Assembly (NCBI GenBank): GCA_045598825.1
Contig: JAZRUX010000018.1
Span: 6,343 to 70,342, forward strand
DNA length: 64,000 bases
Origin: Mycoplasmoidaceae bacterium
Lineage (GTDB): Bacteria; Bacillota_I; Bacilli_A; Mycoplasmatales; Mycoplasmoidaceae
Direction: 5' to 3'
Shown one piece after another: positions 33,361 to 59,009 of the stretch. How positions within the stretch are numbered: the first letter of the stretch is position 1; each line of letters begins with the position of its first letter. A program made the translations under genes and the position numbers. The notes beneath the pieces were generated by a model that did no database searches, was not told the DNA's origin, and saw only the letters and a program-made list of their open reading frames with translations.

Positions 33361-33437
33361 TGGCGCGCCAGAGAGGATTCGAACCTCCGACCACGCGCTT
33401 AGAAGGCGCGTACTCTATCCAACTGAGCTACTGGCAC
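33361..33437 (-). tRNA. tRNA-Arg, anticodon UCU
   Basis: The reverse complement GTGCCAGTAGCTCAGTTGGATAGAGTACGCGCCTTCTAAGCGCGTGGTCGGAGGTTCGAATCCTCTCTGGCGCGCCA folds as a full cloverleaf. Anticodon loop CTTCTAA. CCA is encoded. Confidence 0.9.
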
Positions 33438-34971: not shown

Positions 34972-37341
34972 ATGAAAAGCTCAAATAACAAAAACTTATT
35001 AATCACTCGAGGGGTAATATGTTTCCCTAATATTGAGAAAGATATTGAAATTGCTAGAGAAGCATCAATTAATGTAATTAATGATGCTTATGACAAAGGC
35101 AATAAGGAAATCATCATTACAGCTCAAATTAATCCCAAGTTAGATACAGTAAAGAAGATTGATGAAATCTATAATATTGGTGTTATTGCTAAAATTACTA
35201 AGATTTCTCGTTCTGACAATGAAATAACTATTACAGTCACGCCTAAAGCAAGAGTTTTAATTAGTAATATTAATATTGATAGTAGCAAGAATCTAACTAA
35301 ATGTGAATTTACTGAGATTAATGATCAACAACTATATAAGATCGATGAATCAAAGGAATTTGATACATTATTAGAGTTATTAAACCGATATGATCAAAAG
35401 ATTACAGCACGTATTCGTGATGTTATCATTGAAAATGAAAAGAAAAATAAACAAAATGATTTTATCGATATTGTTTATCAAATTGCTGACTTGATGCCAA
35501 TCCATTTTGATCAAAAGCAACAAATCTTAGCTTTAAACACTCTACCATTAAAGATTGACGCTTTAACTGGTTTATTATCTAATCCAGCTGATTTAAGCAA
35601 AGTAGAAAAAGATATTAATAGAAAATTAAACGAAAGTTTAAGCAAACAACAACGTGAATTTTATTTACGAGAAAAGATGAGAACAATTAAGGAAGAACTT
35701 GGTGAAATCTCATCACGAGAGAATGATTCAACGATGTTTAGAAAAAAACTTCGTGAAAATCCTTATCCAAAACAAATAAAAGAAAAACTAGAATCAGAAA
35801 TTAACCATCTAGAATCTTCTAACCCACAAGAATCTTCAATGATCAGAACATATATTGAATGATTATTGAATATTCCTTGGTGACAAGAAAATAAAGACAA
35901 TAATGACTTTAACAAAGTTAAAAAGACACTAGATACTAGTCACTATGGTCTAGAAAAGGTTAAAGAAAGAATTGTTGAATACTTAGCTGTTCGTGCTAAA
36001 AGTAAAAATACAAAAGCACCAATTATCTGTTTAGTTGGTCCACCTGGTGTTGGCAAGTCATCATTAGCTAAATCAATTGCTGATGCTTTAAACAAACCAT
36101 TTGTTAAAATGGCTCTTGGTGGAGTTAAAGATGAATCAGAAATTCGTGGACACCGTCGAACATATTTAGGTTCAATGCCTGGGCGTATTATCAAAGCTAT
36201 GAAAAAAGCTGGGGTTGTTAACCCATTATTCTTATTAGATGAAATCGATAAGATGTCTTCAGACCAACGTGGTGATCCTGCTTCAGCAATGTTAGAAGTA
36301 CTAGATCCAGAACAAAACTCAAGATTTAGTGATAACTATATTGAAGAAGACTATGATTTATCAAAAGTCATGTTTGTGGCAACAGCTAACTATGCTGAAC
36401 AAATTCCAGCAGCATTATATGACCGTCTTGAAATCATTGAATTAACTTCATATACAGAATTAGAAAAGCTAGCTATTGCTAAGAAATACTTAATTCCTAA
36501 AGTATTAAAAGATTCAGGTTTAACTAATAAGGATCTATCATTCAAAGATGATGCATTAATGTTTATCATCCGACATTACACACAAGAAGCTGGTGTAAGA
36601 GAGCTTGAAAGAATGATTCGCAAAATTGCCAGAAAGTTAGTTGTTGAACAGTTAACTAATAAAAAGAAAACAACTAAAGTAATTGACAAGGTTGAAGCTA
36701 AGTTCTACTTAGACAAAGAAATCTATGAATACAACATTAAAGAAAAAGTAAGCATTCCTGGTGTTGTTAATGGTATGGCATATACTTCAGCAGGTGGTGA
36801 TTTACTACAAATTGAAGTAACACACTATAAAGGCAAAGGTGGTGTTAACATCACTGGTAACTTAAAGGAAACAATGAAGGAATCTGCACAAGTAGCTTTA
36901 GCTTTTGTTAAAGCTAATGCAAAACGATTTGGTATTAAAGATATTGATTTTGCTAAAACAGATATTCATATCCATGTTCCAACTGGTGGGGTACCAAAAG
37001 ATGGACCATCTGCTGGTGTAACATTGACAACAGCCATCATTTCTGCATTGAGTAATCGTCCAGTTAAATCAACATTATCAATGACTGGTGAAATCACTTT
37101 ACGTGGTAAAGTCTTAATTATTGGTGGGGTAAAAGAAAAGACAATCTCAGCTCACCGTGGTGGAGTTAATACCATCATTATTCCAGCCAGAGATGAGCGT
37201 TTCTTAAAAGATGTCCCACCAGAAGTAAAAGACAACATTACAGTTTACCTAGTGGAACACTATGATGAAATCTATAATATTGTCTTTAATGGTAAACCTT
37301 TAAAAGAAACAAAAATCATTAAAGGCAAGAATGTAAAATAA
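34972..37341 (+). CDS. lon: ATP-dependent Lon protease
   Basis: Pieces 34972..35862 and 36109..37341 are in frame. 789 aa. Walker A GPPGVGKSS and catalytic ..PKDGPSAGVT.. Confidence 0.97.
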
Positions 37342-37366
37342 AAAACCTGGTTGACCCAGGTTTTTT
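37340..37366. terminator. Bidirectional terminator between lon and the surface-protein operon
   Basis: AAAAACCTGG-TTGAC-CCAGGTTTTTT. Confidence 0.65.
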
Positions 37367-39385
37367 CTATGCAAAGTAATATGATGTATTTGCTGATGGT
37401 GTATAAGCACTAGGATGATCTGCTGTTTCTTGGAACATATTACTTATATTTAATTGTGAATATCCTGAATTTGGAACAGCCCAAATTAGATTTCTACTTT
37501 GTCCTGATGTATAAGTATGAAGGCTAGTGCACCCAGCAAACATCATTGAACAACATTCAGTTGTAATTGATGTTAATCTTAGTCCAGCACTAGTTAAAGA
37601 AGTGCAACCACTAAACATATATTTATAACATTCTTGTGCCGGTGTTGCAGCAATTAATGTTGATGCTGTTTGTAAGCTAGTGCAACCACTAAACATTGAT
37701 TTACAACATTTCATTCCCAATGTTATTGAACCTGTTTGTGGGAATGCTGGAGTGACTGTTAAGCCTGTACAATTTTCGAACATTTCTTCATAGCAAGAAT
37801 TGCCTCATTGCGTTGCTGGCAATACTGGCAAAGTGCCAGTAAGACCTGTACAATTTTTAAACATTTGATAATAACAATAATCAGGTAGTTCTGTCGCACT
37901 CAATGACAAAGTAGTAGTAAGTGCATAGCAGTTACAGAACATAAATTCATAACACCTTGTCGCAAGTGTTGTAGCAGGTAATGCTGGTGCAGTTTCTAAT
38001 TTATGACAATTATAGAACATTCCCGCATAGCATCCTTCAGCTAAACTTGTTGAAGCTAAAGTTGGTGCTTTAACTAGGTTAATACAACCATAAAACATTT
38101 GATTATAGCAATTAGCAGCCATTTCATCTGCTGGTAAGTTAAGATTGCTTATGTCTTCAAGAACTTCGCAAACTGAAAACATATTAGAATAGCAATATGG
38201 TGCTAACTTTGTTGCGGGTAGTAAGTCTACTGCAATTTCACCTAATCCTAATTTCTTGCAACCTTCAAACATTGCACAATAACATGCAGTAGTTAGTTCA
38301 GTTGCAGGAAGGAACTGGTAAGGTAATGATTCCAAACCAGAACAACCTTCAAACATACTATAGTAACAACAACTTGAAAGTGTTCCATTAGGATTTGATT
38401 CAGTCTTACCAGCTGGCAATAATCCCTTAGGAATTGTTTTTAATCCTGAACAATTCATAAACATTCCACGATAGCAATATGCTCCATTGTAGTTAGTTTC
38501 ATCTGGATCATCTAATGTTGTATCAGGCAACAATGATGATGGGAAGTCAGTTAATCGTCGACAATTATAGAACATGTAAGCATATGAGTAGTTCTTTAAG
38601 TGTGTTGATGGTAAGAAGTTAGTAGAAATAGACACAATACCTGAACATTCTTCAAATAATTTATAGAAGCAATAGTCGTTAGGTATTGGTTCCTCACTAG
38701 GGTCTTCAGGAACCTTGCCATTATCAAGTAATGTCATAACATTACCATTTAAGCTAACAGCTCCACTAATTGAGAATGATGTATAGTCGACATCACTAGT
38801 ATTAAATCCATCTTGGTTGTCACCTTTGAAATATAACACTTCACCAGACTTAAGATGTATTGTATCACCATTTGTATATTTAGGCCAACTAATACCATCT
38901 TTAGAATAATAAACAGTTGGAGCCTTAGTCAAATCACCATGAGTGATCATCGAAACATCTGAGTCTCTAATTGCTTGTAGTCCAACACAAGTTTGAAGCT
39001 CGATATCAACATCAAAATGTGGATAAAGAGTCAAACCATCTGCTGGAATAATATCATTGTTATTCATTCGATGGTATCCATCCTCATCTCATGTTTCTCA
39101 ATAAGAGAATATATAACCATCTAGTGTTGCTATCGGTTGTGAAACTGTTGAAAACTGTCTTCCAACTTTGGCTTTAACATTGGTTGAACCAATAAATTCA
39201 ACATCATCTTGCCCTTCTGATTTTTTTTCAAATTTAACAGAGGTATATTGAACTGTTAATGGTTTATTAGTTTCGAACTTAGTAGGAACAAGAGACAATT
39301 GACTTGCTGCAATTATTCCAGCTGTAAGAGATGTTAATCCTAATGTGGATGCAGCTAATAAACTAATTTTTGTTTTCTTTTTCAT
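37367..39385 (-). CDS. Surface protein A of the CY/MF 26-residue-repeat family (672 aa; signal peptide but no lipobox Cys)
   Basis: ORFs 37367..37783, 37805..39067 and 39098..39385 share one frame, joined by TGA. N-terminal Flg_new-like domain, then a conserved ..LYFKGDNQDGF.. and ..NGNVMTLLDNG.. domain, then about 14 repeats of ..LPAT.L...CY..MF..C..L.. TAG stop. Confidence 0.8.
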
Positions 39386-39395
39386 ACTCTATCTC

Positions 39396-41744
39396 CTATC
39401 TGTATCCTCATGTTTCATTTTTTCCTGGAGTATCAAGATTAAACATTTTAGTAACCGCATCAGTCGGGATTGTTTTGTTAGGAACATTCCAAACTTCATA
39501 TGAATAATACCAATTATTAAAAGTAATTTTTGAAGTGTGCCCCCTTTGACTATCAGACAAAGCATACATTTGGAAACAACATTCAACGGCAAAATCTTCT
39601 AAATGAATTTTGCCAACAGTTGTTAAGTTCCAACAATATTGGAACATCATGTAATAACAACCAACAGTAGCACTAGTAGCGTATAGTTCAGGTGATGATG
39701 TTAATGAATGACAATCATAAAACATGGCTCTACAACAATAATTAGCAAGAATGATTGATTCCTCAGCACTTGGTTCAGGAAATATAGGTGGATTCACTAA
39801 TGATGAACAATTAAAGAACATACTACTATAACAAAAGTTTTTAAGTACTTTGCTTGGTAAATTAGGTGCAGTAGCCAAGTTTGTACAATCTGCGAACATA
39901 CCAGCATAGCATCCAGCAGACAAATCAGTCATAGGTAAGAATGTTGGTGAAACATCTCTAATTGCTACTTCACCAGTAAATAGATTGTTAAAACAGTATG
40001 CATAGTTAGAATCTTCAGATAATTCAGTTAAACCCGTTAATTCACCTCGGCAGTCATCTAACAACCCCATAATATCACCGCCAATATTTACTTGTGATGA
40101 ATCATCAAAAGCAAAGTGGGCATATGATGAGCTAGGACTACTTTTTGGTGTAAAACCATGAATATTATCACCCTTAATATATATCTTTGAACCCTGTGCT
40201 AAATCAACAGCAACACTAGCTTGCATTGTATGCCATGAAGCACCAGTATCAGTTGAATATGAGAATTGTGGTAATGATCCTGCACCAACAAAGTCTCATG
40301 AAACGGATGTTGCTGTGACAGCTTCAACATACATAGTATTACTTAATGTAATATCTTTAAATTCCATTGGAAAGAATGCTTTGACGCCTGTTCCGTCCGT
40401 TGCTTGTGCACAAATATCAACATTACCAGGACGAATTCCAGTAACAACACCACTTTCTGGGTTAACTGTTGCTACCCGAGTATCACTTGAGTATCAGTTA
40501 ATATGTTGTGATGGTGTTGGTTCATCATTTTTTTCAGGATCTACATGTGATGGTGTAGCAACAAGTTGATAAGGATGATTCAATGAAAAGACATAATCAG
40601 TAGGATCTTGAGCATACATAAGATCAGTACATGCAATACTAATATCTGTTGTTGTAACCTTAACTGACCAATTAGAAGGAATTGGAATAGGTGATGTAGC
40701 TTCTTGCGATTGATCATAAACTATTTCACCAGTTGAAGCTACATCATCTAGTCAATTTGTAAAGCAGTTACAATCACCACCAGTATATGCTAATCTAACC
40801 ATATTTAATGAAGAGCATCCAGCAAATAATTCATTGTAGCAAAAAGCTTGCGATGCATTAGAATCGTTTTCTGGTAGCAATGCAGTAGCTGGTAAATAAG
40901 GTGCAGTAATGATTGATGTACAGCCACTAAACAATCCATCATAACAATGTTCAGTTAATGTTATGGCAGGTAAAAATGTGTCAGACACATATTTAATTGC
41001 AGGGTTTCCTTCTAATAAATGATAGAAACAATAATCATTTGGAATATAGTCACTTGGAAGACCTTCTTCATCTTTTCCTGTGCCATCATTAATCAAACCC
41101 ATAACATCTCCACTTATGTTAATGGCTGGAGCAGGGTCTTCTGCACCAGTAAAGGAAATTGTAGTGTAGTCTGAATCACTTGTGCTAAACCCACTTTGAT
41201 TGTCTCCTTTTATGAAGATGTTTTGCCCTGGGAATAATTCCAAACCTTCTGCAGGAAATTCTGGTCAATCATCTTTACCATAATTTTGTGTATAGTGAAT
41301 GTCTGGATTAGAGTCACCATGATTTACTATTTTAATTGTTGTTGTTTCAATCGCTGAAATACCAACACAATTAGCTAGAATTATTTGATCTTCAAATACC
41401 GGATAAACCTTCATGTCTTTAGTGATTGGAGTATTTCATTCAATCTTTGTTGGGATATCTGGTTCAAGATCTAATGTTCAGTATGCAAATTTTGCATTTT
41501 CTTTAATGGCGATAGGTTGCATTACCGTAGCAAATTGTCGACCAACCTTTGCTTTTACAACTGCTGTTCCTTTGATTGTTACACCTTCTGGTGCACAAAA
41601 TGTTACAGTTGTATATTCAACTGAATCTGGTTCTTCAACATCTTGTTTTTGCGTTGTTACACAAGAAACTAATGTAGGAGTAGCAACAGCAAATGCAGTT
41701 GCTAAACTAATTAAAGGAATAATAAATGATTTATTTTTTTTCAT
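39396..41744 (-). CDS. Surface lipoprotein B of the same family, with two complete modules separated by a Big_2-like domain (782 aa)
   Basis: ORFs 39408..40226, 40752..41243 and 41478..41744 all equal 39396 mod 3. Codon-by-codon reading of 40227-40751 and 41244-41477 found only TGA interruptions. MKKNKSFIIPLISLATAFAVATPTLVSC lipobox. TAG at 39396-39398. Confidence 0.8.
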
Positions 41745-41757
41745 CTTTTCCTCCTAA

Positions 41758-44415
41758 TTACTGATGAAGTAAACGTCAGTTTCCATCAGTAGTGTATTGT
41801 AATTCGCCAAATTTACCAATAATGTCACCAGCAGCACTACCAGCAATAGTTATTCCAGTGCTATGACATAATGGTTCTTCTTCTGTATCAGATGCAAACG
41901 ATAATGATAAACCACCATCAGTTTTAAAGTTAATTGCATCAGTATTGATAGTAACAGTGCTTACCATATTATCACAGTTTTGCATGAATTCATTACCAAC
42001 TGATTGGACTGTTTCACTAATTGTTAAATTTTGGTTAAATGCACGACATGAATTTAAGAACTCATCACCAATTTTTTCAAGTGATGTTGGCATGTGTAGT
42101 GGAGTAATCTTTGGAACAGTTGCAGTTGAACCATTATTAAATGTACTACATGCTGCTAAGAAGTCATCGCCAATTTCTACGATACTATCAGGCAATACCA
42201 ATGTTTGGTTAAATGCCATTATGACTGGTGTAGATGCAAAAGCATCACCAGCAATAAAGTTGTCACCTATTAATACACACTTGCTGTTTTCAGTAAATGT
42301 AATTGGTGAGTTAAAGATGATGCAACCATGTAAGAAATTGTCACGAATAGCAGTAACATTATCACCAATAAATAGTTCTGTATCAAAAGTCTCTTTTGGC
42401 AATGGATCTCTTACTGGGGTTCGACCTAGAGGTGTATATTCAATACCGCCCATACCACTAGTAGATGATAAAGATTCAGCATCAAATTCCGCTCAAACAG
42501 TAGCACCTGGGTTTGTTGGATCAATAATTTTTCCTCAAATACCATCTGAGTCAATATATGGTGGTTGAACTGTAATTGTCTTAGTTGCTACAGCATTGCC
42601 GGTAGCAGTAGATGTTGCAGTGATTGTTGCAATACCTTTACTGTCAAGACCAGTAATTAACCTACCATCCGTATCTTCATCAAATATAGGTGCCGTGCCT
42701 TCTCAGCCAGCACTTGTAGCAACGCTTCATTCTACTTCTACTGGATTACCGCTAACATATTCCAAAGCTTCAAACAAAATTTGTGGATGTGATGCTACAA
42801 CAACATCATCACCATCAATAATGATTGGAGTGTCTGCTTGTGGTTCAATATTTAATGTTATTTCAGCAGGAGATAGGTATAATGTTGAATTGTATGTTAT
42901 GCCAACATAGAATGAATATTCTATTGCTTCAATTTCATCATTTCATGTAACAATACCATTAGGTATACTTAAACCAGGAATTGTTAACTCCTGTCTTTCA
43001 GCGTCCCTAAAGGAGTAAGTTAGTCCAGTACTAATTTCAGCTCCATTTTTTAATAATGTTCAAGGTGTTGCATCATGTCCAATTGACCCTTGTTTTCCAG
43101 TTAATAATGTTGATCCACCAGTCACAACATATTTGTCTGCTGGGTTAACATATAAATGAATATCTGGAGATTGAGTTGTAATGCTCTTATATGTTGTTTG
43201 GACATTAAATACCATTTCACTACCAACAGCGACATTTGTTCCTCAAGACACTTTCCCAGTCTTATTATCTATTTGAACACCAGTTGGTGGTGTTCCAACA
43301 ATACTAATTGTTTCTCCTTCAACATCACGTCCATTTTCTTTTAATTGTCAAGCACCATCATCAGCTCCAGCAACGCCAGCTTGAGCAGTCAATGAAACTG
43401 AACCACCAACAAGTTGATATACATCGGCTGGATTAACAGTAAGTGATATTTGCGGAGATGTTTGAACTACTTTACCAGCAATGCTCGCAGCTATAGTAAA
43501 TGTGTATGGATTAGCTGATGTTTCTATTTCATTTGTTCAAGTAACAACGCCTGTTTTAATGTCGACACCTTTCGGTTTAGTCCCCTGGATTGTATATGTT
43601 ACATCATCTTTAACTTCTCCACCGTTTTTTAGTAATGTTCAAGTTCCTGCATCGCCACCAGCAACACCAGCTTGTGCTGTAAGCGATATAGATCCACCTG
43701 TTAATGTATAAATAACCTGCGGTTGAATGTTTAGTGTAACACTAACTCTTGCTTTTTCAACATTTTCAACATAAGCAACAACACTAAAAGTTGCTGGTCC
43801 TGATTTTGTAGTTTCAGAAGCGTTTCATGAAACCTGTCCATTGTTAATAACAATGCTATAATCAGTAATATCACCCACAACAGCATATGTTGCACCTTCC
43901 ACAGGAGTTATTCCTTTCTTCAAAACCCAAATTCCTGTGTCAGTTCCAACATTTTGGTATGTTGCTTCTATGTATGTGTTTCCACCTTCTAATGTAAATA
44001 CATCTGGTTTATCTTCGTTAACGTCTAAAACGATTGGTTCACTTTCACAAGATAAACCATCAACCGTTTTAACAACAATAACAAATGTATAAGCCTTTGC
44101 TACATCAATTTCTTTTCATTGAATTATGTGATCATTATTTAATTCAATTATGCCCGAAACATCGCCATCATCTAATGATTTAATTTCAGTACTATCTCAT
44201 TGTTCATAAGGAATTTCTTCATCATTGTTCTTTAGCACTCATTTTGTGCTATCTTTACCAGCTGTGTTAATTGATGTTGTTAATCTTGTGTTACCACCGG
44301 TTAGTTCCAATTTATTAGTAACAAATGAACAAGTACAGCCAACTGCTGGAATAACAGTTGCTGTAGTTGCACATATGCCACAAACAATCGGAATTAATTT
44401 TGTTTTCTTAATCAT
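41758..44415 (-). CDS. Surface lipoprotein C: five Ig-like repeats, a Big_2-like domain and C-terminal BspA-type LRR units (885 aa)
   Basis: ATG 44413-44415 preceded by GGAG. MIKKTKLIPIVCGICATTATVIPAVGCTC lipobox. Hand translation from 44415 to ORF 41776..42453 sums to exactly 885 codons, with TGA about every 50 codons. TAA at 41758-41760. Confidence 0.75.
42826..44313 (-). repeat. Five tandem 96-106-codon repeats inside gene C
   Basis: The repeats share L.GG....LTAQAGVAG.D.G.W.L..NG..V.....Y.I.G....GV.I...TG.V.W.....(Y/F).F, which is He_PIG-like (putative Ig). Confidence 0.65.
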
Positions 44416-44474
44416 AAAATATCTCCATTCTTTATGGTTTCTAATTTATTTATATATTATTAAATAAAAAATGC

Positions 44475-44501
44475 AAAAAAATATAGACAGTCTATATTTT
44501 T
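44475..44501 (-). terminator. ackA terminator
   Basis: AAAAATATAGA-CAG-TCTATATTTTT. Confidence 0.55.
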
Positions 44502-44516
44502 AATTTGCTTTAGTTA

Positions 44517-45701
44517 TTATTTTGCTAGGGCTTTTACATCGCCAGCAATCATTAATTCTTCGTTTGTTCTTACTCTAAATAATCGAACATCTGAACCAGT
44601 AGCAGTTACTTCTAAATAATCACCATATTTTTCATGATTTTTAGCTGAGTCATACTTTAAATTCATAAGTTTAACACGGTCACAAACACCTTCTAATAAA
44701 TCTGGGTCATTTTCACCACATCCAGCAGTGAAAACAATTGCATCAACTTTGCCAATTTCATTTGCATATTGTACAACATAATTAGCAATACGTTGAAGTT
44801 GAATTTCTCTTGCTAAAATAGCATTTTTATCGCCTTGTTTTGCTTTAGCAATTACATCTCGTGAATCGCTACTTCCAGCAATACCTAACATTCCCGCTTT
44901 TTTGTTTAATTCAGCATTAATTTGTTCACCAGTCAACCCTTGGGTTAATAGGTAGGTACAAACTGATGCATCAATATCACCACATCTTGTTCCCATCAAT
45001 AAACCTTGTAATGGGCTTAACCCCATAGTTGTGTCATATGATTTGCCATCTTTAATAGCACAAATTGATGCACCATTACCAATATGACAAACCACTAAAT
45101 TAGGGTTTTTCTTGCCAAGTACTTCTTCCATTTTCTTTACAATGTAACGGTAGCTAGTACCATGGAAACCATATTTCTTAATTTCATATTTTTCTGTTGT
45201 TTGACGATCTAAACCATAGTCAGAGTTAACAGCAGGAATTGTTGAGTGATATGATGTATCAAAGACACCAACATTGTATGCATTTGGTACTAATTTTTTA
45301 AAGACTTTAATTACTGTTGTTTCACATGGATTGTGTAATGGGGCAATCTTGCCATATTCAATAGCTTTATTTAAGATTGCTTCATCATCAACAATTGTTG
45401 ATTCTTTAAAGAATTTACCACCCATTGCAATACGGTGACCAATACCAACAATATCATTTAAGTCTTCAATAACTTTTAATTCTTTTAATGCATCAAGAGC
45501 AATTTGCACGGCAGCAGTATGATCTGGCATTGGTGCATCTTTTTCAATTGTTTGTCCTTGAGCTGTTTTAACTTTAATGTGACCATCAACAAAGATACGT
45601 TCACATAATCCATTGGCAAATTCAGTTAAATTTTCATAGTCATATACACGAAATTTAATTGAACTTGAACCAGCATTAATAACTAATATTTTCTTGTTCA
45701 T
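44517..45701 (-). CDS. ackA: Acetate kinase
   Basis: MNKKILVINAGSSSIKF.. starts at codon 53 of ORF 44517..45857. 394 aa. AGGA lies upstream. Confidence 0.93.
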   Translation of the reverse strand: MNKKILVINAGSSSIKFRVYDYENLTEFANGLCERIFVDGHIKVKTAQGQTIEKDAPMPDHTAAVQIALDALKELKVIEDLNDIVGIGHRIAMGGKFFKESTIVDDEAILNKAIEYGKIAPLHNPCETTVIKVFKKLVPNAYNVGVFDTSYHSTIPAVNSDYGLDRQTTEKYEIKKYGFHGTSYRYIVKKMEEVLGKKNPNLVVCHIGNGASICAIKDGKSYDTTMGLSPLQGLLMGTRCGDIDASVCTYLLTQGLTGEQINAELNKKAGMLGIAGSSDSRDVIAKAKQGDKNAILAREIQLQRIANYVVQYANEIGKVDAIVFTAGCGENDPDLLEGVCDRVKLMNLKYDSAKNHEKYGDYLEVTATGSDVRLFRVRTNEELMIAGDVKALAK

Positions 45702-45908
45702 AATTTTCCTATCTAATAAGAAAATTATAAACGTTATTTTAATTTTTATGCATAATAAAGATACAGAAATTATGTTTATTAGTATAATAAACATATCGCA
45801 ATTATGAAAGGATAAATATGACAAGTGAATCGACACAGTTAGATCAAGGTGATGCATTTATCCTTACATTGCTTTAATCTTTCTTGATTTGCTTAGCATG
45901 GTAACAAC

Positions 45909-48617
45909 ATGTCTAAGAGACAACAACGAAGAGAAAAAAGAAAACTATATATTACCCAAAAGCAAGGTCAGTTTCTAGTTGAACAAGCAACGAAACAACC
46001 TAAAGCTTTATTAAACGATTTTGAGACTTCAGAAAATGGTTTAAGAGAAGAACAACTAGAAGCAAAATACAATAAATATGGTTTAAACACTATTGCTAAT
46101 AAGAATAAGGTAACATGGTATAAAACACTATTTAGTGCTTTTGTTACACCATTTACTGGTATCTTATTAGTCGTTGCACTTTTAAGTGTTTTACTACCAT
46201 ATTGAAGTGGTGATGGGATTCAACTAGAACAATGAGTGTCATTTGGAATTATCATGGGAATGATTGTTCTATCAGGCACACTAAACTTTGTTCAAAACTT
46301 TAAATCAGGCAAGGCTAGTGAAAAGTTAAATGAAATGATTAATACCACTGCCGCAGTAGAACGAGCTGGTATTAAAAAGGAAATCCCAATTGAACAAATT
46401 GTTCCAGGTGACATTATTCACTTAGCAGCAGGTGACATGGTTCCAGCTGATATGCGTCTTTTATATGCAAAAGACTTATTTATTACCCAATCAGCATTAA
46501 CAGGTGAATCTGAACCTGTAGAAAAGACAGCATTAATTCCAGAAAAAGTTACTAATGCATTGCACTGTAACAATATATGTTTTATGGGAACCACTGTTGC
46601 TTCAGGTTCAGCATATGGCATTGCTGTCCAAACAGGTAAAAATACATTTTTAGGTAAAGTTGCCAAAGCTGTAGGAGCAAGACGTCCACAAACTAGCTTT
46701 GACAAAGGTATTAAGAAAGTTAGTCACATTATTCTAATAACAATGGCAATTATGTGTCTAATTATCTTTATTATTAAAGGTTTAAGAAACCAATTTGGTG
46801 GTTATGATTTATTTGGTAAAAACCCTTGAGTTGAAGCCTTAACCTTCTCTTTAGCTGCAGCCATTGCTATTATTCCAGAAATGCTACCAATGATTATTAC
46901 TTTGAACCTCACTAAGGAAGCAATTAAATTTAGTAAACAAAAAGCCATTATTAAAAACGTTAATGCGATCCAAACATTTGGAGCAATGGACGTTTTATGC
47001 ACCGACAAGACTGGAACATTAACTGAAGACCACATTATCTTACAAGAACATTTGAATGTTCAAGGCAAAGAAGATGAAAAGGTTTTATTATATGGTTGTG
47101 TAAACTCATACCACCAAACTGGTTTAAAGAACCTTATTGATAAAGCTATTGTTGAGCGTGCTCAACAAAAGAAAATAATGGATAAAGTTCAAATGTATAA
47201 AAAGGTTGATGAAATCCCTTTTGACTTTGAACGAAGAAGAATGTCCATTATTGTTGCTGATGAACAAGGCACTAAAACCTTAATTACTAAAGGTGCAAGT
47301 GAAGAAATTATAAATGTTTGTTCAAAGATTTTAGTTGGTGATAAAGTAGTTGATCTTGATAAAGATTGAACTAATAAGATAAAGAAACAAATTACTGAAT
47401 TAAATGATAATGGGATGCGAGTAATTTGTGTTGCAATAAACCATGAACCTTTATTAAAAAACGAAGCATTTTCTGATGAAGACGAAAGAGATTTAATGTT
47501 AGTTGGGTATATTGCTCTATTAGACCCCCCAAAGATGTCAGCTAAAGCTGCTGTTAAAGATTTAATTGCAAAAGGTGTTGCAATTAAGATCTTAACTGGT
47601 GACAATGAAAAAGTAACAAAATACATTTGTCGTCAATTAGGTTTAGGTTCAGTCAAAGTATTGTTAGGCGATGATATTGATAAATTGGACTTTGACCAAT
47701 TAAAAGAAAAAGTCAAAGAAACAACAATCTTTGCTAAACTATCACCTGAACAAAAAGCAAACATTGTTTTAGCTTTAAAAGCTAATAAACATGTTGTTGG
47801 ATATATGGGTGATGGAATTAATGATGCTCCAGCAATGCGAGCAGCAGATATTGCTATTTCAGTTGATACTGCAGTTGATATTGCAAAAGAGTCAGCTGAT
47901 GTTATCTTGCTAGAGAAAGATCTAGAAATATTAGGTAATGGTGCATTACAAGGAAGAAGAACATTTGCTAACATTATGAAATATATCAAGATTTCATTAA
48001 GTAGCAATTTTGGTAATATGCTATCAATGTTAGTGGCAGCACTATGGTTGCCATTCAACCCATTAATGCCAATCCAAATCATCTTCATGAACTTGTTCTA
48101 TGACTTTACACAACTATCCATCCCTTGGGATGCAATTGATAATAAGTTCTTGCAAACACCAAAGAATTGGAATGCGATGTCCATTATTAAGTTCATGGTG
48201 ATTTTAGGACCAATTAGTACTATCTTTGATGTAATTACCTTTGTTATCTTATTCTTTGCCTTTGGTTATAACAACCCTGAACAAGTGATGTTATTCAATG
48301 CTGGATGATTTATTGAGGCAGCAGTTAGTCAAACGGTAATTATTCACGTTTTACGAAGTCGAAGAACTGCATTCATTAAAACTAACCCTTCATTACCAGT
48401 CGTATTAGCTACAACTGGTTCAATGTTGTTCTTAGGGGCAACACCATTCATTCCTGGTTTAAACCTTGGTTTACAATTTGTTAGACAACCAGGAGTAACA
48501 TGTTATATCAATCCATGATATTGGTTAGCATTACTTGGAATCATTATTGGTTATATCATAGTAACAGAGTCAACAAAACGACTATATATGAAAGTTAACC
48601 ACAATGAGTGAATATAA
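45909..48617 (+). CDS. mgtA: P-type ATPase, Mg2+-importing (MgtA-like)
   Basis: Pieces 45909, 46236, 46881 and 47415 share one frame. 902 aa. Motifs DKTGTLT, TGDN and GDGINDAPA. An in-frame TAG 5 codons upstream of the ATG fixes the start. Confidence 0.85.
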
Positions 48618-50809: not shown

Positions 50810-50841
50810 AAAAATAAAAACTAGAGTTTACTCTAGTTTTA
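50810..50841 (-). terminator. Terminator after the DUF31 peptidase gene
   Basis: AAAAACTAGAGT-TT-ACTCTAGTTTT, overlapping the TAA at 50839-50841. Confidence 0.5.
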
Positions 50842-51807
50842 AATATATGGTTCAACAAAGTTTTTATCTATTGAATTGAAAATGCTAAAGAAAGGCTGAA
50901 ATTGTTTTAATCACATATCAGCTATCCCACCCCAATAAATTGCAACAACTTGTCATTCACCTTCAATTTTACCAATTAGCATTGAGCCAGATGATCCCTC
51001 AGGCAATCAATCTAATGGTACATGATAATCATTGGCAAAATTGTATGTTGGTGCAACATCATAAACTTTATCTTCAACAATTTCATGAATGTTTCCAGGA
51101 ATATCTTTTGGCCAATGCGTAAGATAGTTGTCAAATAATTCATTATATTTTCATACTGCCTTGTTATTGCTATTAACAGGGTAACCTGCAACATATGATT
51201 CTACATCTAAATACTCTTTTTCGTTGTCAACCTGAAAAGTTTTTGTAATGTATCCTTTTTCATTGTTATAAAAATTTAAATAATCTAAATTTGCTTTTGG
51301 TTGTCCTTGTGGTTTACCAAAGTTAACTTTGACTACATAAAAATCAATTGCATGTTCTAGATTTTTATCAAAAGTAAAATTTTCTTCATCTTCAATTTCA
51401 TATTTTGAAAAAGGTTGATAATCAGTTAAAGCTAATCCTTCGCTACTATCACTGCAACCATAGTAATAACCAAATGTGCCAGGTTTAGTCTCAGCACAAA
51501 CTTGGTTTTGTCCATCAATGACATGTCAATTTGTAGCAATTCAATATTCATAATCGTCATTGATATCTTTTGTAACATCTGATATCACTCAAGCAGTTCC
51601 TCATACAACACTAGCTCAACCAGGTTGATCGATCTTTTCACCAATGGCCATAATAGAAAAAGTACGGTGAAAAATATATTCTTTTGCAGTTTCTTCAGTT
51701 GTTGGTTCTGGTTCAGGTTCGGGTTGAACTGGATTACAACTAACAAAACATAAAGTATACGGTAAGAGAATTGATGAAAATAAACTAACAATATGCTTGT
51801 GCTTCAT
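50839..51807 (-). CDS. Lipoprotein with a trypsin-like serine peptidase domain (mycoplasma DUF31-type), 322 aa
   Basis: MKHKHIVSLFSSILLPYTLCFVSC lipobox, then a PEPEPEP linker. ..GTAWVISD.., ..WIATNWHV.. (His) and ..LPEGSSGSM.. (Ser). The frame of ORF 51616..51807 reads through TGA to TAA. Confidence 0.65.
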
Positions 51808-51860
51808 ATTTTTATTTTAAATCTTTTTTCGGAAAATAAATAATTTATAATTATTTACAT

Positions 51861-53063
51861 ATGAGAAAAATACCAATTATATTACCTAGTTTGTTTGTGG
51901 CTGCCTTAACACCGACAATAACTTTGAGCAGTTGCTCTAATTCTACATTTGTTGTAACACTTTATGCTGATAAAGGTTCTTTTGGCGAATCAAAAAGTAT
52001 TACATTAACTGGAGTTCCAAAAAATACCAAATTAAAGGATATTAAAGGTTATGTAACACCTTATTTATCTGGCGATGATTTCCGTGGTTGAATTGACAGT
52101 GAAAATAATTATGTTAATGAAAATGATTGCATTAATAAAAATTTATTGCTAAAAGCAACATATGATAGTGATTTCCCTGTTGCTGTTGATAATTTTGAAA
52201 CTGATCCATGAGCAACGATATGTCATTATGCAAACCAAGGTTTAGGTATTTTATGTGCAGCATATAGACAACCTGCTTCTTGATTTGTTGGCAAGGAAAG
52301 AACGATAAGTGTTAATCAATTAAATCACAAAGTACTTGTTGTTGGGACAAACAATGAAACTTATGTTAAAGATGGTGGTCTTAACTTTGCTGCATTAACT
52401 TTCCAATTCAAAAATTTATTATCGCGTTCTGATGGGCTTAGTTTAGGTGTGCCTTGGTCCTCTGGTGGTGATAATATAAACTATGATTATTGAAATTCAG
52501 CATTATGTCACTCATTAAATGGCTCAGATCCAGAATGACATGATCCTGACATAGATAAAAATGCATTTGAAATGATTGAACTAGATAATGCTGAATGGGC
52601 TGACAGCATTAAAGCAGTCAAACAAACTCATAATGTTTGCAAAACTCTACCAACTGAACCGGGAGAAAAAATACCTTGAGAACTTGAAACCCATGAAGAA
52701 AAGGTTTTTTGCCCAACAATTTCTAATTATTTTTCACAAAAAGGCATTGAAGAAACTAGATGAGATCCAATTACTAGATGAGATTACCAATTATATTGTG
52801 CTGAAGGAAAACAATTCCAATACTATGCACAAAATATCATTTTTGATAGTTGCATCGGTGAAGAAGGGACAACAAAGCTTTTCCATAAATTAAAATTGTA
52901 TAACTGCGGTGGGGGTTGTGATGACTATATTGTTGGTACTCCAGTATTAAGCAAACTTGACGCAATCTGGATTGTTCATGATGAAGAGAAAGATTATGGT
53001 AGTTTTTATCAACATTGAGAAGCTAAAAATGGTGGAGCAGTAGCACCATGCTTTTGCATATAG
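51861..53063 (+). CDS. Lipoprotein, paralog 1 (400 aa, ends ..APCFCI)
   Basis: ORF 51861..52091 carries a lipobox (TLSSC). The frame reads through about 8 TGA codons to TAG 53061-53063. Confidence 0.75.
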
Positions 53064-53077
53064 GAGGATCGAAAATT

Positions 53078-54265
53078 ATGAAAAAATTATTTGTTTTAAC
53101 TTCAAGTATCATAACAACTTTTGCGGCTGCAACAATTAGTTCATGTTCTAACCAATCAAGCAGTATTGCTGTTACCCTATATGCAGGTGATGTGGGGACA
53201 TTTGGTCAAACAAGATCATTGTACCTAACAGATTTTGATGCTGGAACAGTATTAAAAGACATTGCTAATTACACCGAGCCAGAATCAGATTATGAATTTT
53301 TGGGTTGAGTTGACGATAACGGTAATGAAATTAAACCTGATACTATTATCAACTCAAGTTTGTTCTTAAGAGCACATTATTCTATTCCACAAGCTGATGA
53401 TTTTACTACTGATCCGTGGTCAACTGTTATTTATTATGCAAACCAAGGATTGGATGCTTTATGCAAAGCATATAGCAAAACACCAGATGATTTTATTGGC
53501 ATGAAAAGAATTTTAAAGATTAATGGTTTGGACCACAAAGTAATGGTTGTTGGAACAAACAATGAAAAATATGAAAAAAATGGTATTGGCCAAATTGCAG
53601 CATTAACATTCCAGTTTGTTACATGTATTTCTAAACAAGATAATGATGGTTTAGCAACTTTTTATGATGGTGAACAACCTATTTTTGATTATTGAAACTC
53701 ACTTTTATGAAATGCATTAAATGGCACCAATGTTCGTTGATCTGATCCCACTATTAGAAAGAGTGTGGCTGAGATGGTTGCAGATGATGAACCATTGGTA
53801 AGCAAAAATATTAAAGAAGTATATCGTGGTGTTAATTCTAGCACAATGGTTTCTCCGAATTATTATCCTTGACACTTAGATACAAGAAAAACAAAGTTTT
53901 TCGAACCAACATTAGCAAACTATTTTTCTGATAAAGGGATAACTGACACTGGTTATGGCGAAGAGTTAACCGACTTATTTAAAAGCCAAGAGGCTATGCA
54001 AAGATGCATGGATGAAGGCGATCAATATCAATATTATGCTTTGGAAGGTAATATTGAAGACAACATATTAACAACTTCTAAGCCTCCAGATTATTACAAA
54101 TGTTTAATTTGCACAACTGTAGATGGCCGTGGTGCAGTAAAATACCATCTTACTTCACCAGTAATCGATGAAAATAATCATAATTGATTTATAGAAGGGG
54201 AAGAACTTCGTGCTAATTTTACTTATGAATCCTCTTGCTGTGTCGTTCCATGCTTCTGCATTTAG
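53078..54265 (+). CDS. Lipoprotein, paralog 2 (395 aa, ends ..VPCFCI)
   Basis: AGGAGG lies 8 nt before ATG 53078. MKKLFVLTSSIITTFAAATISSC lipobox. Pieces 53360 and 53996 are in frame. TAG at 54263-54265. Confidence 0.75.
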
Positions 54266-54286
54266 ACTAAAAAAGGTAACTGGTTT

Positions 54287-54736
54287 TTATTTATATTTGG
54301 TTTGCCAATTTGATCGTTGACTATATCAATCTTTTCATGTTGCTTTTGCTACTTTTAAATTAAGTGTTTTATAATTACCACAACTTGTTGGATTTTGTCC
54401 TGGCATGATTTTAGCTGTAGTTATGAATTTATCGCATTTATCTAAAGATGTTTTTAATCATACCAAATTCTTCTTGCCACCTACAACTAAATAGAATCCA
54501 GTTTGGCACCCCATTGGGCCAAAATATATTTTTTCAGAATAGTTATTAGTGTAGAAGGTGGCAAGCAAGTGTTCTAATGAATGCATTGCAACATTTGATA
54601 AATAGTTGCCCTTGTTTGGTGTCTTGAAACGTAAATCAAAGGTTGTGATTACCAAATTCTTTATTTGTTTTTGATCATGCAAATAAATTCCAGGTTGTAA
54701 TTTTGTATGGTTAATTTTAAATGATCGAATAAGCAT
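54287..54736 (-). CDS. luxS: S-ribosylhomocysteine lyase
   Basis: ..HSLEHLLA.. (HxxEH metal site), ..FDLRFKTPN.. and ..GPMGCQTGFY.. ORF 54458..54736 extends through TGA codons to TAA 54287-54289. 149 aa. Confidence 0.85.
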
Positions 54737-54742
54737 ATGTAC

Positions 54743-57451
54743 CTAATACATTGAAAATAAATTAAAATTACAATTATTTCTATCATTAAGTGGTGTCACC
54801 ATAATGTCGAAATTACAATTTTTAAATTCTTCCTTTGTAAGTTGGTTAGTGCCAAATATCGCATACGTCTGATATACTGGTGGATATAAACTACCAATAC
54901 CGTTAATGTATACATAAGTGTTTTCAAAATCTATATCAACAAAATTATAAATTGACAGAAGATCAACAAGATTACCAACACCAAACATAAAACCTCATAC
55001 AGAGTCCCTATGAATATGCCAATTTTTTGTATCTACGTGTAAATGGTATTGTTGTCCTGCAACAACATCAATTTGCTGGTCACTTTTAATTGCATCCACT
55101 GTGGTCGTCACCATATCAAACATAAATTCATTGTTTAGCAATACATTTTTTGTATTGTCTAATGGATCAACAAAATCAACAAATGCATCAATAATACAGT
55201 CAACTTGGAATCCGCTTTGCTCGGCATTCATTATTGAAGTATCAACAGTTATTGTGTTGTTTTCTCAATCAAATAAAATTCCTTCTACATTGTATCAATT
55301 GTGTTGCCTAATAGAAAAACCTATAAATTCATAATTCTCTTCTATATTGTCGACATGAAATTTTATTTCATTTGCTGTATTTTCGATGACGTCTAAAGTT
55401 GCTCCTTTGCATTTACTAGTATCAATTTTCCAGTAGTTGTTTTCTTTAGGCGCATGAATTGTAAAATCAGTTTTTGGGACTATGACATCACCACTTTCAG
55501 AATCAACAAATGTTAATGAAAAGTGTTTTTCTTGAGTTAGATCTAATGATTGGCCTCAATCCAACAATAAAGTCTGCATAAAAACACCATCCACATAAGT
55601 TCTACCGGTTGGAGAATAGTTGTCTATAGAAAAAGCTGGCATAGGTAACCCATCACTTGATTCAAATATGAATGTCAAATTTTCAAAGGATGAATAGTTG
55701 CCAGAAAAAATGTAATCGTGTATTCTTGTTTTAGTTTCACCTTCTGGCATTGTTAAATCTGTATTTATTCTATATGGTGTGATGTTTGATAATAAGAAAA
55801 TAGACATTGTTTCTTGATTTGCAATTACTATGTCATTCTTTTTGACAATAGGAGCGAATAAATAGTAATTGTCCCATTTAGTGAGATCAAATTTTTCGTT
55901 CCACTCATATGTAATATCAAAATAATGTGTTCCATCATTAGCTGATTCTATCATTTGCGAATGTTCAACTATAATGTTAGGAGCAGGAAGAGGCGTTTGT
56001 TCTCCTGGCCATTCAACAGTTAATAATGGTTTTGACTCAGATCCTGTTTCTCCCGGAACTCTAAAATCGAAATTTGTCTCATAATTTGTAATTGTTAATT
56101 GCGGTTTATCATCATTAATAACTGGTGATCGCTCACCGGCTTGTGTAGCAATTACATAGTCACCAATTTTTACTTCAACATCAAGTGTAGACAAAAATGT
56201 TTTATTTAAGTACATAAATAACTCAATATTTGAGTCTACTAATTGACTAATACTATTAACTGTAACATCAAGATCAAATGTAGTTGTTTTATCTTGTAAT
56301 ACTTCAATGTTACATATTTCAGTTGATACAACAATTAATGAATCATTTGTTTGATTGTTACAGCCTACAAATTCTATTTGATCATAACTATCTTCACTAA
56401 ACTCAAAGTTAGCTTTAAACCCAGCTAAATGAACTTGACTCATGTTTGTCAAATTTGCGGTTTTACTGACACCTAACGTATCTATTGTCTTAGATGTTTC
56501 AGCAAAGTGCAAAGTTAACTCTTTTGACATTTCTGGTTCATCAACACCATCAATGTTAAATTGAATATTACACTTATGATTTTTATGATCATATGATGAT
56601 ACATCATACTCAATGTATATATCAAATGTAGATTTATTAAAGTTGTCATTAACAATATTGACTATTGTTGCAGTTGCAGACTCATTTGCACCATTTGGTC
56701 AATAAATTGTTGGAGTTACATCTATTTCTCTTAAATTGAAATTAGATTTAAAACCCCTAAATAGGAAACCAACTTTTTCTTGCCCAATAACACTATCAAC
56801 TTGAGTTGGAACATATTCATCATCAATATGTTCTATTTCAGGTAATGCTTGAACATCAACTTGAATTCTGTTTTGACTCTCAATGGTTGTTTTATAACCC
56901 ACACATTGGGCATAAACTTCAATTATCCCAATACCTATTGGTTTTAAAACATTATCTTCAAATATAGCTACTCCAGGGTTGGTTGTTTTAAATTCTATGC
57001 TTTTTTCTGCTTGCTCTGGATAAACAACAGCATCAAATTCTAAAACTTCATTATCGTATAAAATAGTTGGATTAGTTTGCCCTTTATTATATGAAATACT
57101 AATTGTTTGTGGAACTAGTATGGTTACAACATTAATACGGATAGCACTATTTTTTATTTCAGAAGCAGGGATTGTTAAAACACCATCATTATGTAGTTCA
57201 AAAGGCTTTTGAGTTTTATCAATAAAATAACTTGATTTTTCTTCGTGAATTGCATAACCGCTAGTAGCAGTGATTTTTATTTTAAAATCATTACCTTTTT
57301 CTTGTGAAATCAATTCATAAGTAAAATTACCTTTGTTTATAGTTCATTGGTAATTTGGCAATATATGTTGTGTATTACAACTAGACAAGACTGTAATTGG
57401 CAAAGTACTAATGCCTATTAAACTTATTAATGCAAACTTCCACTTTTTCAT
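54743..57451 (-). CDS. Large lipoprotein of unknown function with an N-terminal Big_2-like domain, 902 aa
   Basis: Pieces 54743, 54995, 55556 and 56699 share one frame. ATG at 57449-57451. MKKWKFALISLIGISTLPITVLSSC lipobox. TAG stop 6 nt before the luxS ATG. Confidence 0.75.
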
Positions 57452-57531
57452 AGATTACCTCTAATTTGATTATATTAAAGTCTTATTTAATATTTATATA
57501 TTTATTAATATAATAATCTAAAGGAGATAAT

Positions 57532-57840
57532 ATGGCAAAAAAGAAAAAACAAAATAGACATGAGCACCACGTTGTTCCCAACAAAGAAGGTGGATGAGAC
57601 GTTAAAATTAATAACGCTGGACACCGTACTTACCATACTAGAAAAAAATCAACTGCTATTAAAAAAGCACGTGCTATTTCTAGAAAACACAAAACTGAAT
57701 TGGTAATTCACAAAGCTACAGGGCAAATTGAAGTTAAAAACTCACACAAAATTGTTCGTCGTGGAAAACCAGGACCAAAGCCTAAAAAACACAAAAAAGC
57801 CAAAAAAGCTAGACGTACTAAAAAGGCTAAAAGAAGATAA
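57532..57840 (+). CDS. Small basic protein, DUF2188-like core with a poly-Lys/Arg tail, 102 aa
   Basis: AAAGGAGA SD. MAKKKKQNRHEHHVVPNKEGGWDVKINNAGHRTYHTRKKSTAIKKARAISRKHKTELVIHKATGQIEVKN.. followed by ..RRGKPGPKPKKHKKAKKARRTKKAKRR. One internal TGA. Confidence 0.6.
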
Positions 57841-57842
57841 TT

Positions 57843-57868
57843 AAAACTAGGTTAAACCTAGTTTTTTT
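57843..57868. terminator. Palindromic hairpin AAAACTAGGTTAAACCTAGTTTT (copy 2 of 3)
   Basis: It directly follows the TAA at 57840, and lies 27 nt before the ATG of the next lipoprotein gene. Confidence 0.55.
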
Positions 57869-57894
57869 ATTGAATAAGTTATAATTATTGGATT

Positions 57895-58497: not shown

Positions 58498-58598
58498 TAC
58501 TTAACTTTTTTTATTCATCATTCATTTTTTCTTAAATTTTCTAATTTTTAGGTAAATATACATATGGGAGAACCCTACGATGTAGGGTTAATATTTTC

Positions 58599-58967: not shown

Positions 58968-59009
58968 TAAAATAGTCTTGAAATAGTAACAAGGATTTAT
59001 AATTAATTA

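Follow-up and report, generated by a model that had tools for sequence, protein, structure and literature searches.

What are the three consecutive surface-protein genes that stand between lon and ackA in the genome of an uncultured mollicute, and were they brought there from elsewhere? The question is raised by a 64,000-nt stretch of contig JAZRUX010000018.1 (Mycoplasmoidaceae bacterium, assembly GCA_045598825.1), hereafter "the window", for which a first-pass annotation had proposed that the minus-strand genes C, B and A form a tightly coupled operon inserted between lon and ackA, that no characterized system of such composition is known in mollicutes, and that an undescribed host-interaction module might be at hand. 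The answer we favor, with a probability of roughly 0.7, is more modest: a conserved accessory operon of three BspA-like leucine-rich repeat (LRR) surface proteins in a gut mollicute, a reading carried by the gene structure, family membership, fold of A, synteny, presence and absence in relatives, and native codon composition described below. The host itself is an uncultured gut mollicute of Mycoplasmoidaceae that uses genetic code 4 and falls in or near Candidatus Hennigella, a genus inhabiting diverse mammalian guts (PMC8957277).

Gene layout and transcription signals

The organism reads TGA as Trp, and the window was retranslated with genetic code 4, which yields three uninterrupted minus-strand open reading frames (ORFs), separated by 13 nt (C/B) and 10 nt (B/A), whose sizes, coordinates, gaps and Shine–Dalgarno (SD) motifs match those reported earlier exactly. 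Under table 11, in turn, A, B, C, lon (34972-37341) and the MgtA-like ATPase gene (45909-48617) are all fragmented, and pseudogene calls for each of these genes are to be expected in any table-11 annotation of the contig. The features on which the transcriptional reading is based are as follows:

41758-44415 (-), gene C, predicted lipoprotein of 885 amino acids (aa), table-4 ORF, identical to P0121
39396-41744 (-), gene B, predicted lipoprotein of 782 aa, table-4 ORF, lipobox LVSC with Cys28
37367-39385 (-), gene A, 672 aa, table-4 ORF, identical to P0001
41750-41755 (-), SD motif AGGAGG of B, read from the sequence, within the 13-nt C/B spacer
39393-39396 (-), SD motif GGAG of A, read from the sequence, overlapping the TAG stop of B
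37340-37366 (either direction), bidirectional intrinsic terminator common to lon and gene A; RNA fold with 11 pairs, -14.9 kcal/mol
44416-44516 (-), ackA-C spacer of 101 nt, presumed promoter region (from sequence and RNA fold)
44481-44497, ackA's own terminator hairpin followed by a T run (RNA fold), inside the ackA-C spacer
44454-44459 and 44443-44448, -10-like hexamers TAATAT and TAAATT, inside the ackA-C spacer
44423-44426, SD motif GGAG of C, 7 nt ahead of its ATG

The lon gene is convergent to the operon, and the hairpin at 37340-37366 is, as had been claimed, the only strong terminator-like hairpin of the region; its equivalent is found 3' of lon in L004, L005, L006 and L007, and the terminator hairpin of ackA recurs upstream of C in L004 and L007 (L numbers denote related genomes or contigs). 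A single weak intragenic terminator candidate (43776-43796) compares with a chance expectation of 3.8 per region, and neither RNA families nor tRNAs were found within the operon region. Because the genes share a strand, are parted by tiny spacers bearing SD motifs and contain no convincing internal terminator, they seem to make up a single transcription unit that encodes surface proteins; the arrangement is kept, seven assemblies having spacers of 2-19 nt, and the tightly coupled operon proposed at first is thereby upheld at the level of sequence, its gene order recurring in at least six other assemblies.

Two annotation matters touch this region. Antisense ORFs lie over gene C at 41726-42910 (+, 394 aa) and 43181-43711 (+, 176 aa) in table 4; they are very probably artefacts of there being only two stop codons in this code, and opposite-strand ORFs over repeat genes have been remarked on in the PARCEL paper (PMC2996958). 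The longest ackA ORF (44517-45857, -), moreover, begins 52 codons too early, the true start being 45701, since the orthologues are 394 aa long and have the N-terminus MNKKILVINAGSSS.

Domain composition and family assignment

The domains discerned in the three proteins are the following:

38711-38998 (-), KGDN/Asp-box beta-sandwich of A, aa 130-225 (strands at 134-213 in the model)
37466-38677 (-), LRR solenoid of A, 13 repeats with the consensus LPATTLAxxCYxxMFxGCTSLTxAP and a period of ~26
41037-41384 (-), KGDN/Asp-box beta-sandwich of B, copy 1, aa 121-236 (alignment A4)
40383-40523 (-), Big_2 domain of B, aa 408-454 (Pfam PF02368, 28.1 bits, cut-off 22.8)
40005-40343 (-), KGDN/Asp-box beta-sandwich of B, copy 2, aa 468-580, with YSTDTGASW (alignment A4)
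44335-44415 (-), signal peptide and lipobox of C, aa 1-27, AVGC, Cys27
42838-44304 (-), five tandem ~96-aa immunoglobulin (Ig)-like repeats of C, aa 38-526, with He_PIG/cadherin-like motif features
42565-42837 (-), beta-rich domain of C, aa 527-617, conserved in four orthologues (alignment A6)
41911-42402 (-), divergent LRR_5 (BspA-type) repeats of C, ~aa 672-835 (20.9 bits, cut-off 27.7)

Protein A consists of a signal peptide without a lipobox, a Flg_new-like domain, a KGDN beta-sandwich, a Cys-laddered LRR solenoid and a C-terminal cap, its 13 CYxxMFxxC repeats being spaced mostly by 26 residues. It barely reaches Pfam LRR_5 (PF13306; 27.9 bits vs a gathering threshold of 27.7), and its score for the NCBIfam model TIGR02167 ("PARCEL repeat"), 28.9 bits, lies below the cut-off of 30. 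A database search with A returned more than 3,100 relatives, many of them annotated with PF13306, and LRR_5 is matched by 9 of 20 aligned homologues (best E 4.6e-21). From the 20-sequence alignment A1, AlphaFold gave a confident model of A (mean predicted local distance difference test score, pLDDT, 85.2; predicted template modelling score, pTM, 0.79): residues 1-44 are a disordered leader, 47-124 make up a small beta domain and 134-213 the beta-sandwich, and a long non-helical solenoid then reaches to ~640. When this model was compared with the Protein Data Bank (PDB) by Foldseek, the top match was 4h09_A, a Eubacterium ventriosum protein with BspA-type LRRs (E 1.7e-4); InlA and further LRR proteins came next. 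It is for A only that the LRR solenoid fold can be regarded as established, and then by a predicted model.

Protein B is a paralogue of A, to which its N-terminal module is 36% identical (E 5e-49). Its layout runs from a Flg_new-like domain through a KGDN beta-sandwich with three LRRs and a cap to Big_2, and on to a second KGDN beta-sandwich with four LRRs, so that Big_2 sits between two KGDN+LRR modules and the CYxxMFxxC repeats, ~26 residues apart, number 3 + 4. The two modules represent an internal duplication (aa 123-313 vs 467-649, 36.8% identity, E 3e-28), which the first-pass annotation did not contain. Big_2 is recorded also in the B orthologues of L001, L002 and L090. As for TIGR02167, B scores 16.2 bits (cut-off 30), and both A and B match only positions 1-12 of that model.

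The "Flg_new-like" label given to the N-terminal domains of A and B has fared unevenly. No Pfam match to Flg_new (PF09479) was obtained in either protein at E<=1, the threshold of the hidden Markov model thus not being reached, and a PDB profile search with the domain alignment A3 returned nothing significant; what stands is a weak best PDB sequence match to the InlB B-repeat (2y5p; E 0.09 and 0.15), with which, as with Flg_new, the predicted beta domain of A (aa 47-124) is compatible.

Protein C can be pictured as a long Ig-like stalk with a distal, divergent BspA-type LRR domain. The five repeats claimed for it are there, starting at aa 38, 142, 238, 335 and 431 and sharing invariant G, D, W, W and F (alignment A5), as are the Cys-laddered 26-residue repeats claimed for A and B; the He_PIG match of the C repeats in Pfam, however, is sub-threshold (E 0.015), and their A5 profile has no significant match in the PDB. 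The Big_2-like domain formerly assigned to C has no Pfam match there (the best PDB match of alignment A6, a sialidase Ig-like linker at E 0.5, is not significant), the only above-threshold Big_2 being the one in B. The BspA-type LRR of C, the remaining item of the earlier domain list, is sub-threshold in C itself, but the orthologue of L007 does reach LRR_5 with 32.1 bits, those of L004 and L008 scoring 27.0-27.3 bits. In addition, 11 of 11 database hits of the C-terminal profile A7 of the C orthologues carry PF13306, the repeats of C resemble the ~23-residue BspA consensus ...IgxxAFxxCxxL... (e.g., LPDSIVEIGDDFLAACSTFN), and the orthologue of L008 matches Flg_new at 27.8 bits (vs 27). A homologue search with C as the query returned only C itself because the word index fails on such a low-complexity, divergent protein; orthologues with 31-41% identity were found by tblastn in the syntenic loci of L001/L007, L004, L008, L088, L090 and L091. 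Metagenome contigs scanned with the profile of the C terminus of C yielded three matches, all weak and uninformative.

Taken by their LRR_5 match and fold (A), homology to A (B), and orthologues and profile hits carrying LRR_5 (C), the three products appear to be BspA-like/TpLRR (Pfam LRR_5) surface proteins and no new kind of system. The earlier statement that no such system had been characterized in mollicutes does not hold, as families of this type have been described in Candidatus Mycoplasma girerdii, and neither does the epithet "giant", the window also encoding a 902-aa lipoprotein.

Several observations weigh against this assignment or the operon reading. Direct Pfam searching gives no LRR_5 match in B at all, and the LRR_5 score of C is under the threshold; a structure prediction of C made without an alignment was unusable (pLDDT 31). 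The 26-residue repeat of A and B is poorly captured by both LRR_5 and TIGR02167: it keeps the MFxxCxxL core, differs from the ~23-residue consensus in its period and second Cys, and appears to be a two-Cys variant that falls between the two models and is specific to the present case. Promoter-like matches amount to 41, with 43.7 expected from shuffled sequence, and at such a chance-level number the scan says nothing about internal promoters. Finally, the Asp-box beta-sandwich could indicate binding of glycan rather than protein.

How might such an operon work? C, B and A would be co-transcribed from the 101-nt spacer past ackA's own terminator, with translation re-initiating at the SD motifs on or beside the preceding stops. 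The products would be exported by Sec, after which C (through Cys27) and B (through Cys28) would be lipid-anchored; A would keep an uncleaved or signal peptidase I-type signal and go without a lipid anchor in this genome because the codon of its lipobox Cys has become AGT. The Ig-like or Flg_new-like domains, together with the beta-sandwich spacers, may hold the LRR solenoids off the membrane, and the solenoids, by analogy with known family members, would bind ligands on the host mucosa or on other gut microbes; it is on this analogy that an adhesion or ligand-binding role of A, B and C is proposed.

Distribution and pace of evolution

In a scan of one genome per species with the Lon N-terminus, the closest relatives are metagenome-assembled genomes of Mycoplasmoidaceae with a Lon identity of 91-92%, one of which, Candidatus Hennigella equi, comes from horse faeces. 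The order ackA-C-B-A, with the convergent lon behind it and spacers of 2-19 nt, is present in L004 (CP185407.1), L007 (= L001), L008, L088, L090 and L091 (the last three being Logan contigs), which makes at least six related assemblies carrying C-B-A; L088 has two C-like genes, and L089 carries a B-A pair in a different context. The trio is missing at the lon-ackA site of L005 (CP185406.1), L006 (Ca. H. equi) and L009. In L005 the stops of lon and ackA are ~26 nt apart and share one hairpin, so the adjacency without an insert that had been anticipated for a close relative does exist, while the site of L006 holds a hotdog-thioesterase-like ORF and a 215-aa lipoprotein.

The gene behind that ORF encodes a 125-aa FlK/4HBT hotdog thioesterase (L006 12368-12745 (+), L088 12256-12633, L091 6383-6760) and stands between lon and the operon in some relatives, or beside the 215-aa lipoprotein in L006. 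As the thioesterase is present in some of the relatives, and the lipoprotein in L006, the lon-ackA junction is a site of recurrent change in gene content.

A neighbor-joining tree of Lon pairs carriers with non-carriers as sisters, namely L004 with L005, L007 with L006 and L008 with L009 (the carrier named first), and the operon occupies one and the same site in each of the clade's two deep branches. An ancestral locus that was lost several times is the simplest reading of this pattern as seen from a single-gene tree, and it fits better than the inserted island proposed at first.

Identity among orthologues is only 25-51% for A, B and C, as opposed to 91-92% for Lon and 89-91% for AckA, so the three proteins are evolving very fast. 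Could they then be a tandem array of independent, immunodominant variable antigens serving antigenic diversity or as decoys, their co-transcription being incidental? Among the alternatives this one survives best, and we regard it as a real, if minority, possibility: besides the contrast in identity with the neighbors, it would account for the repeated loss in sister genomes, the modular gain and loss of repeats, the swaps of anchor type and the several family members per genome, and the BspA-like genes of Ca. M. girerdii are known to be phase-variable (PMC5476646). The DNA, however, offers little for such a mechanism to act upon, as neither the genes nor their upstream sequences contain simple-sequence repeats or homopolymers above the genome background (the longest tracts are A/T runs of 8 and (AT)4, and Tandem Repeats Finder gave nothing relevant), and the DNA repeats, spaced by 78-81 nt in the LRR of A (families D1-D4 and D7) and by 288-291 nt in C (family D6), have diverged to 60-79% identity, which makes them poor substrates for recombination; the strict domain order, in turn, argues for a retained function.

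Phase variation as such was considered and rejected for want of simple-sequence repeats in or upstream of A, B and C. The A8 runs on the coding strand at 41734-41741 (codons 2-4 of B) and 39221-39228 (the FEKKSE segment of A), which occur at background density, are the only conceivable slippage sites of the operon.

Anchoring and the question of a complex

When tested against the lipobox pattern [LVI][ASTVI][GAS]C, C (AVGC, Cys27) and B (LVSC, Cys28) conform and A (IAAS) does not, there being no Cys in its signal region at all; the AVGC|S motif of C is shared with the lipoprotein at 57895. The two lipoboxes and the signal peptide lacking one, as noticed at first sight, are thus correct for this genome. 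The single position that matters in A is:

39302-39304 (-), A codon 28, reading AGT (Ser); most orthologues encode the lipobox Cys at this position, and a single base change would give TGT

A clear lipobox Cys is present in 9 of 13 aligned A orthologues, and a lipobox was read in the A genes of L004, L007, L008, L088 and L091 as well; the A protein P0090 (L089) likewise has no Cys, and P0003 and P0008 are ambiguous. The anchors of C vary too: the orthologue of L007 and both copies of L088 have a lipobox, whereas those of L004, L008 and L090 have an N-terminal cytoplasmic segment and a transmembrane helix instead. Since the A orthologues mostly bear a lipobox and the C orthologues swap anchor type, the "two lipoproteins and one secreted protein" pattern is a trait of the present genome and not of the system.

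It was on this pattern that the first-pass annotation had built its anchored complex with a secreted partner, i.e., a dedicated heteromeric adhesion complex in which C and B are anchored, A is secreted or peripheral, and the tight operon maintains stoichiometry. The conserved C-B-A order with its tiny spacers, the joint absence of all three genes from L005 and L006 and the missing lipobox of A both here and in P0090 do speak for such a complex, yet with the lipobox Cys in most A orthologues and one base separating AGT from TGT here, with the anchor of C changing and a second C-like gene in L088, which means that the composition is not fixed, and with an A/B paralogue at 59010 standing alone and unlinked, we hold it to be unlikely. 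A bolder version, in which the trio forms a surface organelle of the Hennigella clade without a described counterpart, C being the stalked anchor and B and A the ligand-binding arms, draws on the strict order of the genes, the translational coupling at their junctions and the fact that the three are present all-or-none, and is likewise improbable.

The KGDN beta-sandwich domain

The domain marked by (I/L)(Y/F)(I/F)KGDN...G(N/D)(V/I)M.L(L/I)(D/N), which had been pointed out from the letters alone, is real and conserved (alignment A4) and forms a ~100-residue beta-sandwich in the model of A. It is covered by no Pfam or NCBIfam model, and the A4 profile found nothing significant in the PDB. Among 1.84 billion representative proteins, the same profile matched 7,978 at E<=1e-3, of which 2,147 also pass E<=1e-10, with up to 40 copies of the domain per protein and proteins of up to 6,226 aa. 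In the relatives sampled, it is combined with LRR_5, above-threshold TIGR02167, BACON, the sorting tail of the type IX secretion system (T9SS), Big_3 and Rib, and the contig of one homologue also carries TonB-dependent receptor genes. From these partner domains (T9SS, BACON, Big_3, Rib) and that contig we infer that a module running from the beta-sandwich through 26-residue LRRs to a GIPxGW-type cap is shared across phyla. That KGDN is a widespread domain still without a curated model is, on the profile matches, a more certain proposition than the heteromeric-organelle reading.

Does the domain point to glycan binding and nutrient capture, the beta-sandwich and LRRs binding host or dietary polysaccharides? 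Its Asp-box-like SxDxGxxW hairpin motif (e.g., YSKDGISW or YSTDTGASW) would be in keeping with this, as would the BACON domains of relatives and the weak best matches to CBM25 (PDB, E 0.12) and, in relatives, to F5_F8_type_C and CHB_HEX_C; none of the carbohydrate-binding matches is significant, however, and the genes next to the operon include neither glycoside hydrolases nor sugar transporters, which leaves this quite an unlikely explanation.

Origin of the locus

The GC content at third codon positions (GC3) of the three genes is 0.196, 0.174 and 0.160, compared with 0.203 +/- 0.029 in the rest of the window, and is therefore native; their extra overall GC is confined to codon position 2 and so reflects amino-acid composition. 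A comparison of GC and codon usage with the flanking genes had been suggested at first; measured against the rest of the window, GC3 does not single the trio out. No integrase, transposase or other mobility gene, tRNA target or flanking direct repeats were found at the site. As GC3 is native, the marks of mobility are missing and the operon is present in both deep branches, it appears to be an old, fast-evolving and dispensable locus at a variable spot, and no recent foreign insertion.

The remaining alternative, PARCEL-type (DUF285/TIGR02167) repeat genes newly arrived by horizontal transfer as a mobile island, which the near-threshold TIGR02167 score of A (28.9 vs 30), the above-threshold scores of the relatives P0198 and P0128, the occurrence of the module across phyla beside T9SS tails, BACON, Rib and Big_3, and the variable content of the lon-ackA site might all suggest, is very unlikely given the native GC3, the site free of integrase, transposase, tRNA target and flanking direct repeats, the lack of dyad symmetry at the repeat period and a shared position in both deep branches that implies ancestral presence. 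Recent horizontal acquisition was accordingly rejected on GC3 and phylogenetic distribution.

Other surface-protein genes and features of the window

Besides the trio, the BspA-like family is expanded in this genome, with at least three further genes recognizable from their sequences within the 64 kb:

59010-60335 (+), unlinked, stand-alone A/B paralogue, 441-aa lipoprotein with KGDN, LRR and a GIPxGW-type cap
3019-4542 (-), canonical BspA-type LRR_5 lipoprotein gene (LRR_5 96.6 bits)
4759-6969 (-), canonical BspA-type LRR_5 lipoprotein gene (LRR_5 136.4 bits)

The first of these is 37% identical to aa 156-490 of A (E 7e-55), and the last encodes three Flg_new_2/InlK_D3-like repeats and an Ig repeat weakly similar to the repeats of C. 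The 59010-60335 gene also belongs to a stretch in which at least eight lipoprotein genes are densely packed (50839, 51861, 53048, 54743, 57895, 59010, 60409 and 60978), so that 50839-61463 looks rich in surface proteins. The 902-aa lipoprotein encoded there (54743-57451, -; lipobox LSSC) has no Pfam match at E<=0.1 and is more of an orphan than the trio.

The RNAs of the window, all on the minus strand, are a class B RNase P RNA (11211-11564, 226 bits), tRNA-Gln(CTG) (7025-7099) and tRNA-Arg(TCT) (33361-33437). Among the relatives, a ToxN-type toxin gene lies near tuf (L001 18409-18954) and an AbiEii gene near ackA (L002 528-1385); these are possibly abortive-infection or toxin-antitoxin modules, which would be unusual in such small genomes, and at the equivalent positions of this window neither was found.

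Significance

The clade being uncultured and known from metagenomes only, it is chiefly from their surface proteins that one may learn how its members attach to a host or a partner microbe. Ca. M. girerdii is joined here by a second mollicute lineage in which BspA-like LRR proteins make up a multi-gene family, and the retention of the trio as a fixed operon at the variable lon-ackA site is specific to this gut mollicute clade. The operon thus offers a target for studies of expression, localization and binding, as well as a presence/absence marker among related species. Attention is also drawn to a common beta-sandwich (KGDN) domain that has no curated model; a new type of system does not come to light.

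Comparison with known systems

Listeria internalins InlA and InlB resemble the present proteins in combining an LRR solenoid with an Ig-like/B-repeat (Flg_new) domain on a surface-anchored invasion protein, but they have 22-residue internalin-type LRRs and another domain order, and the similarity, at E 0.09-0.15, is not significant. EUBVEN_01088 (4h09) and BT_1240 (3sb4; E 0.37) are BspA-type LRR proteins of gut bacteria that come from structural genomics; at a sequence identity of 13%, their template modelling scores against A are low (0.19-0.31), as A is set apart by additional N-terminal domains and by another repeat length and curvature.

BspA of Tannerella forsythia, to which adhesion, invasion and TLR2 signaling are ascribed in the summaries given by PMC4206474 and PMC2843621, and LrrA of Treponema denticola share with the trio, as far as those summaries go, an LRR_5-type solenoid and Big_2 on a surface protein, as well as a Cys at the usual Asn-ladder position (AFxxC/MFxxC). 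In BspA as summarized there, the 23-residue repeats are N-terminal and Big_2 is C-terminal, on a Gram-negative surface, whereas A and B have 26-residue two-Cys repeats after an Asp-box beta-sandwich and C has its LRR at the C-terminus.

The M. mycoides and M. agalactiae groups are known to have DUF285/PARCEL repeat lipoproteins, e.g., LppQ (PMC2996958). A tandem period of 25-26 residues on membrane-targeted proteins is found here too (mostly 26 in A, with a signal peptide or lipobox present), and the likeness extends to the MFxxCxxL start of the repeat, its presence on mollicute lipoproteins and its patchiness across phyla; relatives P0198 (49.9 bits) and P0128 (47.8 bits) even pass TIGR02167. 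The scores of A and B (28.9 and 16.2 bits), by contrast, are below 30, none of A, B and C has a DUF285 match in Pfam, the second half of the repeat is LPATTL and not W/N-rich, and neither palindromic coding DNA nor an association with mobile elements was seen: no dyads are in register with the repeats, and those inverted repeats that do occur span long distances, are 70-94% complementary and bear no relation to the 78-nt period.

Nearest of all is the family of Ca. M. girerdii, whose 26-28 BspA-like genes have been described and are expressed (PMC4206474, PMC5476646, PMC9239101), and highly so when it lives with Trichomonas (PMC9239101). Both are expanded sets of TpLRR/LRR_5 surface proteins in uncultured, host-associated mollicutes, with very variable lengths, a variable gene set and a presumed part in the interaction with a host or partner microbe. 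Compared by description, most of the Ca. M. girerdii proteins are anchored by a C-terminal transmembrane segment, and dinucleotide repeats make several of them phase-variable, whereas the anchor here is an N-terminal lipobox (or an N-terminal transmembrane helix in some C orthologues), repeats for phase variation are absent, and the three genes form a conserved operon whose site is fixed.

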